Virus record (IMG/VR): IMGVR_UViG_3300006039_000001
Length of the DNA: 40,646 nt
Direction: 5' to 3' (one strand)
DNA from: a virus
The position numbers and the translations under genes are program-made. Positions 32,159-33,599 of this stretch are shown here, one piece after another. A model generated the notes under the pieces. The model worked only from the letters and a program-made list of their open reading frames with translations, did no database searches and was not told where the DNA came from. Within the stretch, counting starts at the first letter, position 1; every line of letters begins with the position of its first letter.

Positions 32159-32484
32159 GCAACATCGATCCCAACAAAGCCGTTGAGTTCCTGATCACGA
32201 ACGCCGCGAAGTTTGCCCACGCCAAGGCCGCTCGCGTATACCTGGAGGAATTCCGCAAGTCGAAGAAAGCTTTGCTGATGTCGCAGAGCGCCGAGCGCGC
32301 CGCCAACGCCCGCGAACAGTTCGCCTACGCGCATCCCGAGTACCAGCAGCTGCTTTGCGATCTGCGCACGGCCATTGAGGTTGAAGAAGAGTTGCGCTGG
32401 CAACAGGTGGCCGCCCAGTTGCGCGTGGAAGTTTGGCGCAGCCAGGAGGCCACCAATCGCGGCCAGGAGAGGGCGACACGATGA
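32155..32484 (+). CDS. Hypothetical helical protein
   Basis: GTG 32155 in a GTGA overlap. 109 aa. Confidence 0.5.
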   Translation: MSNIDPNKAVEFLITNAAKFAHAKAARVYLEEFRKSKKALLMSQSAERAANAREQFAYAHPEYQQLLCDLRTAIEVEEELRWQQVAAQLRVEVWRSQEATNRGQERATR

Positions 32485-33599
32485 AGCCAGCCTTCTACAA
32501 CGAGATCGACCCCTTCGCCGCCGCCTGGCTGCGCGAACTCATCAAAGCCGGCCACATCGCCCCGGGCATCGTGGACGAGCGAAGCATTGAAGACATCAAA
32601 CCGCGAGACCTCGATGGATTTTCACAATGCCACTTCTTCGCCGGGATCGGCGTCTGGTCCCTTGCTCTGCGCCGAGCCGGATGGCCTGATGACCGACCTG
32701 TTTGGACCGGTTCCTGTCCTTGCCAACCTTTCAGCGCGGCAGGCCAAGGAGTTGGGTTTGATGACGAGCGGCACCTCTGGCCTCACTTCCATTGGCTCAT
32801 CCAAGAGTGCCGCCCTGCAAGCGTCCTTGGTGAGCAGGTTGCAAGCAAGGACGCAGATCCTTGGATCGACCTTGTTCAAATTGACTTGGAAGCCCTGGGT
32901 TTTGCCTTCGGGGCGGTCGCTTTCCCGTCTGCGAGCGTCGGTGCCCCGCACATCAGGGACCGTACCTACTGGGTGGCCCACGCCCAAAGTCGCGGACACC
33001 AACGGTCCCGGGGACTCGGCGAATCGACAGGGCGGAATGGCGCTACACACGGCGGCGCAGCTCTCATCCTGGCCCACAACCACCAGCACGGACGCGGTGC
33101 GCTGCCCCTCGCAGGGCTTCACGACGCCCAACGTGACGTTGAACCACGCGGCGGTGCTGGCGGGTTGGACAACACCAGACAAGACCATGACGCAGCACAA
33201 GTCAGTGCCGCCAGTGTTGGGCAATCGCAAGCCGACCGACCCGCAAATCTCGCTGGCGGATCAGGCATTTCACCTAGCGGGCTGGCCGACACCGACCACG
33301 GTGCTGAACACCGGAACACCGGAGCAATTCATCGCGCGCAAATCGCGTACGCAGAAGACGGTAGGGACGATTACGGACCTGTCGGTGGCGGTGAAGCTGG
33401 CGAACGGCCCGGCCCGACTAACGGCCCATGGCGTGATGCTGACTGGCTCTTGTGCCGGGATGGAAAGTGGCGGCCAGTTGAACCCGGCACATTCCCGCTG
33501 GCTCATGGGGCTCCCGCCCGAGTGGGACGTCTGCGCGGTTATGGCAATGCAATCAATGCCTACCAGGCGCAAATCTTCATTGAAGCGGTGATGGCATGA
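32481..33599 (+). CDS. DNA (cytosine-5) methyltransferase (frame A); the middle third is of doubtful coding status
   Basis: FFAGIGVW (motif I), GSCPCQPFSAAG (motif IV), LGEQV (motif VI-like), GAPHIRDR (motif VIII), C-terminal LRGYGNAINAYQAQIFIEAV (motif X). The middle ~140 aa are low-complexity with poor third-position GC. Confidence 0.7.
   Translation: MKPAFYNEIDPFAAAWLRELIKAGHIAPGIVDERSIEDIKPRDLDGFSQCHFFAGIGVWSLALRRAGWPDDRPVWTGSCPCQPFSAAGQGVGFDDERHLWPHFHWLIQECRPASVLGEQVASKDADPWIDLVQIDLEALGFAFGAVAFPSASVGAPHIRDRTYWVAHAQSRGHQRSRGLGESTGRNGATHGGAALILAHNHQHGRGALPLAGLHDAQRDVEPRGGAGGLDNTRQDHDAAQVSAASVGQSQADRPANLAGGSGISPSGLADTDHGAEHRNTGAIHRAQIAYAEDGRDDYGPVGGGEAGERPGPTNGPWRDADWLLCRDGKWRPVEPGTFPLAHGAPARVGRLRGYGNAINAYQAQIFIEAVMA
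32689..33591 (+). CDS. Nested +1-frame ORF (frame B) with WPTP repeats and an LNP…WLMGxP motif; either an overprinted gene or the frameshifted methyltransferase TRD
   Basis: 300 aa from ATG 32689 (ORF open from 32587). [41 protein letters not shown] / GWTTPD / [27 protein letters not shown]. Third-position GC ~79% in its middle vs ~57% for frame A (hand count). Confidence 0.55.
   Translation: [300 protein letters not shown]

Follow-up and report, generated by a model that had tools for sequence, protein, structure and literature searches.

We analysed a methyltransferase locus in a viral DNA of 40,646 nucleotides (nt) (IMG/VR virus record IMGVR_UViG_3300006039_000001; "the window" below means this whole stretch at its full length). 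A gene for the catalytic chain of a C5 cytosine DNA methyltransferase (C5-MTase), here called frame A, contains entirely within its limits, on the same strand, a second long open reading frame (ORF) in the +1 frame, here called frame B (Table 1). Both are real coding frames under protein-level purifying selection, and we consider it likely that the locus specifies two proteins from one stretch of DNA, most likely subunits of one C5-MTase. Frame A matches PHROG 363 end to end (E 9e-88) and frame B matches PHROG 1008 (E 6e-34) and PHROG 31772 (E 1e-31), in agreement with the first-pass annotation of this DNA, which had described both overlapping frames as coding. The motifs it quoted from A and B are all present, and the W(P/T)TP repeats of B number four where it had counted three. 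The +1 frame is open from 32485 onward, and an upstream ATG at 32614 would give an alternative B of 325 amino acids (aa).

Table 1. Features of the nested methyltransferase locus (pLDDT, predicted local distance difference test; GC3, GC content at third codon positions; AdoMet, S-adenosylmethionine)
Feature	Position	Strand	Remarks
Frame A ORF, alpha-like C5-MTase catalytic subunit	32481-33599	+	ATG 32481, TGA 33597-33599; 372 aa
A residues 1-170, folded catalytic (large) domain	32481-32990	+	pLDDT about 90
FFAGIGVW, A aa 52-59	32634-32657	+	AdoMet-binding motif I (FxGxG-like)
GSCPCQPFSAAG, A aa 77-88	32709-32744	+	Read from sequence; includes PCQ (motif IV)
GEQV, A aa 117-120	32829-32840	+	Read from sequence; motif VI, ENV-type
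GAPHIRDR, A aa 154-161	32940-32963	+	Read from sequence; motif VIII
A residues ~173-320, G/R/A/H-rich non-conserved spacer	32997-33440	+	pLDDT 35-45; conservation 0.25-0.4; variable length
A residues 321-372, conserved hairpin (DADWLLCRDGKWRPVEPG) and C-terminal helix	33441-33596	+	Helix 345-371 with pLDDT >90
GNAI (motif X), A aa 355-358	33543-33554	+	Within the C-terminal helix
Frame B ORF, beta-like subunit	32689-33591	+	+1 frame relative to A; ATG 32689, TGA 33589-33591; 300 aa
B residues 12-100, conserved N-terminal segment (including LFKLTWK)	32722-32988	+	Conservation 0.77; helix and beta-hairpin with pLDDT 71-87
B residues 95-244, four W(P/T)TP-type modules with variable stretches between	32971-33420	+	GC3; codon-position pattern; cores WPTP, WPTT, WTTP, WPTP, W at B aa 96, 128, 160, 199 (codons at 32974, 33070, 33166, 33283)
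B residues 263-279, motif-IX-like LNPxxSRWLMGxPxEW	33475-33525	+	Near-invariant columns; resemblance to Dcm judged by eye
First dual-constraint segment	32727-32984	+	A codons 83-168, B residues ~14-99
Second dual-constraint segment	33414-33536	+	A codons 312-352, B residues ~243-283

The composition of the locus follows the two frames. GC3 is 0.57 in frame A and 0.79 in frame B between 33000 and 33430, and 0.60 and 0.69 respectively between 32690 and 32990, which reproduces the earlier hand counts; neighbouring genes have a GC3 of 0.72-0.76, slightly lower than the figure of about 80 % previously given for ordinary genes, in a genome of 61 % GC. The codon example offered as a sign of dual constraint (32870-32892, LVQIDLE in A and LFKLTWK in B) reads as claimed.

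To follow both frames through related viruses we assembled 83 loci, from three GenBank phages and 80 IMG/VR contigs (A identity 45-60 %, GC 54-67 %), chosen by similarity to full-length A and therefore mildly biased toward intact A. The two frames align at the same loci in all 83, and both ORFs are kept in 80, so that a +1 ORF of 233-450 codons covers nearly all of A; the +1 frame contains 1-6 stops, confined to its extreme ends, against 11-31 in the +2 frame. These counts bear out the proposal that a large gene is nested within the MTase gene. Among the 83, B is interrupted in two loci (L018 and L045) and A itself is frameshifted in a third (L074), and in another (L065) the B frame continues 565 nt beyond the A stop; decay of the copies, assembly error or further variation may account for these four.

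Suppression of synonymous variation in the overlaps, which the first-pass annotation had named as a check on dual coding, is strong. We measured third-position entropy at conserved four-fold degenerate A codons across 73 non-redundant loci and compared regions by the Mann-Whitney test. Entropy is 1.64 bits in the non-overlapping baseline (A codons 1-48), 1.39 bits in codons 49-84 (p = 0.08 against non-overlap), 0.61 bits in codons 85-168 (p = 4e-6) and 0.41 bits in codons 313-350 (p = 5e-7); codons 351-372, also counted as baseline, have 1.10 bits. The drop is sharp at A codon 83 (nt 32727), which is the onset of the conserved part of B. In both overlap cores all three codon positions are 0.83-0.97 conserved, and because of this constraint a megablast search with 30000-36000 matched the two dual-coded segments only, in 80 phage records of ~12 genera at 80-86 % nucleotide identity, while the flanking genes returned nothing.

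Between these segments the evidence for the two frames is of another kind. When synonymous B codons in the middle region were resampled with the B protein kept, the mean probability of an open A frame was 0.095 per sequence, yet A is open across the spacer in 73 of 73 loci: the A spacer is kept open by selection. A B-based codon alignment shows islands of conservation at the WPTP motifs, in which the first and second positions of B are more conserved than the third, and B is therefore the selected frame in the middle of the gene, the amino acids of A there being a by-product. The spacer would be translated but is apparently unstructured, its sequence dictated by frame B.

Frame A carries the catalytic signature. 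PF00145 matches aa 76-171 (motifs IV-VIII) with an E-value of 1.5e-11, over the curated cut-off, and a phmmer alignment with M.HhaI over the same motifs places GSCPCQPFS, GEQV and HIRDR in register with PCQ, ENV and QKRER. At least 8,000 relatives named DNA cytosine methyltransferase are present in a large protein collection, and a protein identical to frame A is on record (P0121). An AlphaFold2 (AF2) model of A built on a 120-sequence alignment returned M.HhaI, M.HaeIII, DNMT2 and DNMT1 in a Foldseek search. Near-invariant columns toward the C-terminus are W317, D321, W322, C325, D327, R331, G355 and N356. No variable region (target-recognition domain, TRD) or motif IX was found on the A chain between motifs VIII and X, where the residues of the spacer are non-conserved and modelled with low confidence (Table 1). 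As modelled, A is a C5-MTase large domain (motifs I-VIII together with motif X) whose variable region is neither structured nor conserved. The N-terminus of A has features of its own: FFAGIGVW lies only ~25 residues ahead of PCQ, an unusual spacing for motif I, and is preceded by a conserved segment, AYYNEIDP.AA.WLRNLI..GHIAPG.VDERSIEDV (within 32481-32720), in which AF2 is confident. Distant A relatives from the phages Tadhana and Royals2015 have a canonical N-terminal LSLFSGIGG instead.

Frame B belongs to a large family that annotation pipelines leave without a name. More than 7,160 close relatives have been called as proteins in the same large collection, unnamed or "hypothetical", and a search with a B profile recovered 15,208 cluster representatives (50 % identity) at E <=1e-3, of which 7,372 reach E <=1e-30; searches of frame B against Pfam and NCBIfam gave no family. 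In phage records B-like sequence was found only at loci that are annotated as methylase or unannotated. Its conserved N-terminal segment overprints A motifs IV-VIII and is also present in the nested ORFs of Paenibacillus, Bacteroides and Salmonella SAP012 phages; the helix and beta-hairpin within it are the one confident part of the B model. The W(P/T)TP modules, which vary in number among relatives from one in SAP012 to at least four elsewhere, are the proposed target-recognition region. The element near the C-terminus of B resembles motif IX, with 6 of 12 positions alike in E. coli Dcm (RRLTPRECARLMGF) as judged by eye, and lies ~14 codons upstream of the GNAI of A on the DNA. The canonical motif order across the two frames stands in substance as first described, with I-VIII, variable region, IX-like element and X succeeding one another along the DNA.

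We looked for a single conserved start of B in the 73 relatives and found none. At least one ATG precedes the conserved part of B in all 73, at several recurrent positions; besides the one at 32689, B-frame ATGs recur at A codons 30, 32, 38, 42 and 61. Most called B relatives start at the Met equivalent to 32689.

The arrangement extends well beyond these relatives. By tblastn the two frames were found at shared loci in numerous phages, in most cases each as one full-length alignment; among these are Pseudomonas phage Haboob, Bordetella phage PHB09, Salmonella phage epsilon15, Burkholderia phage BcepC6B and phages of Klebsiella, Erwinia and Rhodobacter, and the nested +1 ORF is also present in N15 and K1 phages. 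The hosts of phages with this 0/+1 arrangement span four phyla and include Proteobacteria, Paenibacillus, Bacteroides and Mycobacterium. The longest open +1 frame spans 236 codons in Paenibacillus phage Tadhana (GC 0.47), 329 codons in Bacteroides phage BKO1-TP3 (GC 0.46) and 205 codons in Mycobacterium phage Royals2015, whose A is 237 aa long with ~50 residues between motifs VIII and X. Synonymous shuffling gave P <=0.003 for all three, and <0.001 in the Paenibacillus and Bacteroides phages; in the single-chain control, E. coli dcm, the nested frame is absent and the longest +1 open stretch is 88 codons. The distant nested ORFs, which lie in phage C5-MTase genes with canonical N-termini, are homologous, sharing ANLS..PGSE.AR.MT.TSG, C.LTWK, RLLFRL.PS..RTEE, (W/L)PTP.A.D repeats and LNP..VE.LMGFP.GW, and hhalign of the B profile against Tadhana gp55 gave 97.5 % probability (E 5e-12). 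These sequence comparisons indicate that the arrangement is much older than the clade of the window.

Both ORFs have on occasion been annotated, without comment or function: in K1ind2, ORF28 ("putative Mte8-like protein") lies inside ORF29, and in Tadhana gp55 lies inside gp54; these, like PHROG 1008, represent the same gene pair as that of the window. The "Mte8-like" label was considered as a sign of a canonical in-frame homolog and rejected, being a transitive annotation from a fused protein, UniProt Q9Z406 (P0298, Pseudomonas putida "MTE8-ECOLI homolog"). Q9Z406 joins the N-terminal part of A to the C-terminal part of B, with the junction ahead of motif VIII, and appears to be the source of the label on the nested ORF in E. 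coli K1 phages. The overlap is not discussed in the paper annotating the Paenibacillus phages, no such methylase is mentioned in the Atkins frameshifting review, and no published account of a phage-wide nested arrangement was found in the literature searched.

Many database proteins are fusions of this kind, denoted A(N)+B(C), in which A residues 1 to ~170 are followed by the B modules and the chain runs to the stop codon of B. The point of fusion varies widely, between A residues 134 and 290, and in several cases motif VIII would be lost, a pattern expected of independent indels of one base, or of sequencing errors, in a region open in both frames; one example is a Pseudomonas gene, similar to that of Haboob, from which a single base is deleted. 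One Klebsiella P2-like prophage clade has a junction of a different character, a poly-G tract (G10 at L093 2044-2053; G7 at L096 844-850 and L097 844-850) with a TAA in the frame of the N-terminal part of B directly after it. The A C-terminus (FWRDADW...GNAI) of this clade is open and conserved in the third frame, and one added G would give back separate A and B; the tract could reflect phase variation, transcriptional slippage or homopolymer sequencing error.

Reduced versions of the pair were also observed. Salmonella phage SAP012 (L088 1501-2301; NC_053008 15837-16637) has an A of 266 aa and a B of ~227 codons with a single WATP module, in an 800-nt RefSeq stretch without an annotated gene. 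Ralstonia phage RpY1 (L087 ~1786-1980) retains a 65-aa remnant, annotated as a putative methyltransferase, in which just the final portion of each frame survives, RVGRLRAYGNAINA being read in one and PPEWDACAPTETRS in the following one.

A precedent for two chains from overlapping frames is M.EcoHK31I, a C5-MTase heterodimer in which the alpha gene contains the coding sequence of the beta chain in a different frame (PMC2836561, PMC3404938). The earlier remark that a nested gene and a doubly shifted one would each be unusual is fair, although this case precedes it. Activity of M.EcoHK31I needs both chains, stepwise deletion of the beta N-terminus weakens its association with alpha, and several internal Met codons of the beta frame can initiate (PMC2836561). 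Because of this published behaviour we infer that A and B would associate, that both would be needed for methylation and that B would set the specificity. On the reading that we favour, A would be translated straight through, joining an N-terminal I-VIII region and a C-terminal motif X helix by a spacer of ~140 residues predicted to be disordered, and B would start at the internal ATG at 32689 and/or 32614. The B N-terminal segment is the proposed alpha-binding part, by analogy with the beta N-terminus of M.EcoHK31I (PMC2836561), and its helix and hairpin would dock on A. The B modules and the IX-like element would form the small domain reading the target, and the A-B pair would methylate phage DNA and so allow evasion of host restriction. 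In canonical C5-MTases motif IX organises the small domain.

A number of results weigh against a heterodimer of this form. Searches of B against PDB sequences (phmmer and profile search) gave nothing even at E 10, and the AF2 model of B alone (121-sequence alignment) is poor, with a pLDDT of 62 and a predicted template modelling score (pTM) of 0.28. The motif IX assignment is a visual one: Pfam found no matches in any of eight short constructs covering the C-termini of B and A, IX+X chimeras and distant homologs, hhalign of the B profile against E. coli Dcm was not significant and PDB profile searches gave no motif IX match. The ATG at the position of 32689 is kept in only 33 of 73 relatives, with ACG in 38 of 73, and no strong Shine-Dalgarno sequence was found ahead of ATG 32689. 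Natural single-frame A(N)+B(C) fusions do occur, one of them kept by three diverged members of the Klebsiella clade, and chain connectivity may be more flexible than a strict alpha/beta split. Finally, the TRD of M.EcoHK31I is reported to be in alpha, whereas in the window the conserved variable-region modules are in B and the alpha spacer is unconserved and predicted to be disordered, so that the roles proposed for the two chains depart from those in the one case examined by experiment.

The lack of detectable similarity of B to solved structures or to Pfam and NCBIfam families would suit a separate protein with a function of its own, such as a regulator, anti-restriction or DNA-binding factor, for which the methylase gene is a mere scaffold and A a complete enzyme. 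Viruses commonly carry overprinted accessory genes. We regard this reading of B as improbable. A is unstructured and unconserved between motifs VIII and X, a gap reduced to only ~50 residues in Royals2015, and A alone would therefore be without a target-recognition domain. The IX-like element of B lies directly upstream of motif X of A, and the confinement of B-like phage sequence to methylase-annotated or unannotated loci likewise argues against an independent role.

The canonical order of the modules on the DNA raises a second explanation, put forward in the first-pass annotation, in which two programmed shifts (0 to +1 after motif VIII and +1 to 0 after the IX-like element) yield one canonical methyltransferase and the long open frames are secondary. 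A chimeric query (A 1-166, B from GWPTP to EWD and the A tail) against 5.8 billion proteins found no relative that joins the three parts in a single frame; it recovered only A(N)+B(C) fusions. The absence of such relatives is what programmed shifting would predict, and the Klebsiella G7/G10 tract followed by TAA at the first junction resembles a slippage site. However, an uninterrupted catalytic-WPTP-GNAI frame was also the finding that would have spoken for assembly indels, and in its absence both indels and an obligatory 0 to +1 to 0 reading are unsupported. In the window no X_XXY_YYZ heptamer is present at either junction (about 32985 and about 33530), as noted previously, and no homopolymer of six or more was found across the methylase gene. 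A double shift would not require the A spacer to be open, as it is in every one of the 73 relatives; it would skip B 12-100 and the A hairpin (aa 317-350), both of which are under some of the strongest constraint; efficiency would be very low with two shifts in sequence; and M.EcoHK31I functions as two separate chains (PMC2836561). We give this explanation only a slim chance.

Slimmer still is the chance that enzyme function resides in the single-frame A(N)+B(C) fusion, made in the window by one +1 shift, with full-length A and B as by-products. The abundance of database proteins of this form and the retention of the fusion in the Klebsiella clade are in its favour, but the scattered junctions, several of them removing motif VIII, are those that random indels would give, the product would lack motif X, even the Klebsiella clade preserves an open and conserved A C-terminus in the third frame, and 80 of the 83 viral loci are unfused. 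An artefact, either two compensating assembly indels or a B frame open by chance in a 61 % GC genome where long spurious ORFs are common, has a negligible probability: the same two frames recur in 83 independent loci and in GenBank phages of 46-67 % GC, the shuffling test is significant at 46-47 % GC and the synonymous-site signal is strong, so that the comparative data already refute an artefact of either form.

Returning to the two-subunit reading, we hold it possible, with somewhat less confidence than doubt, that it describes a general design, in which a very large phage and prophage C5-MTase family across phyla encodes its whole small domain in the +1 frame inside the catalytic gene. If true, few regions of prokaryotic viruses that code in two frames of the same strand would be as long (~900 nt) or as widely conserved, and the design of M.EcoHK31I would be a general one and not a single curiosity. 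Beta chains with different numbers of W(P/T)TP modules might then recognise one target or several, and a switch between the split and the fused form might come about by indels or by slippage at the G tract. The locus also offers a natural and strongly supported model of long dual coding, with segments of ~260 and ~120 nt in which all codon positions are constrained.

The pair also has consequences for annotation. Gene finders allow just one of two long same-strand ORFs, so that thousands of calls in public databases have A or B alone, alongside chimeric A(N)+B(C) "methyltransferases" from single indels. Standard annotation passes over the beta family, for which neither Pfam nor NCBIfam has a model. 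If the pair were recognised, many records would be corrected, and the "hypothetical proteins" of >7,000 clusters would gain a function. Phage orphan methylases protect phage DNA from host restriction, and a heterodimeric nested design would emerge as a common solution among them. Natural split C5-MTases are a starting point for targeted methylation tools (PMC2836561), a toolbox that a modular beta-subunit family would widen.

The methylase gene lies within a phage nin-like block, flanked by an HNH endonuclease gene and a NinG/Rap gene. A 63-aa ORF with a CxxC...CxxK pattern (33596-33787) begins in an ATGA overlap with the A stop, and the GC3 of 0.83-0.90 in 33605-33784 belongs to it. The 278-aa NinG/Rap ORF is listed at 33601-34437 and its PHROG 171 match begins only at residue 81; NinG probably starts near 33802, and the 63-aa ORF is probably a real upstream gene.

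Several known systems resemble parts of this locus. Fragment complementation of M.HhaI, M.BspRI, M.BsuRI and M.SssI has shown that large and small domains supplied as separate chains give an active enzyme (PMC3404938), although these are engineered splits and not natural overlapping genes. Actinophage methylase genes carry out-of-frame HNH endonuclease insertions, such as the ShiLan element (PMC11855218), which like B is an ORF concealed in a different frame of a phage methylase gene whose host frame remains stop-free. The ShiLan element is, however, a mobile homing-endonuclease insertion in the third frame and not a conserved methylase component, and HNH features are absent from B. M.AquI (Karreman and de Waard 1990) is, like the proposed pair, a natural two-subunit C5-MTase split in the variable region, its alpha chain having motifs I-VIII along with a portion of the variable region and its beta chain the remainder together with IX and X (PMC3404938); in the window motif X is on the chain with I-VIII, and the second gene is fully nested, not downstream.

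The closest likeness is to M.EcoHK31I (Lee, Kam and Shaw 1995), compared here by its published description (PMC2836561, PMC3404938), in which alpha carries motifs I-VIII, motif X and the TRD, and beta carries motif IX (PMC2836561). In both, beta is nested in another frame of a gene whose alpha chain has I-VIII and X, and the window gene likewise has several candidate beta starts and a conserved beta N-terminus. The beta of M.EcoHK31I is 176 aa long, whereas that of the window is 300 aa long and comprises an N-terminal segment, a set of four W(P/T)TP modules and a IX-like element, and M.EcoHK31I belongs to a restriction-modification system whereas the window gene lies in a phage nin-like region. 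The design itself has been known since 1995, from one enzyme, and the window gene represents a variant of it.

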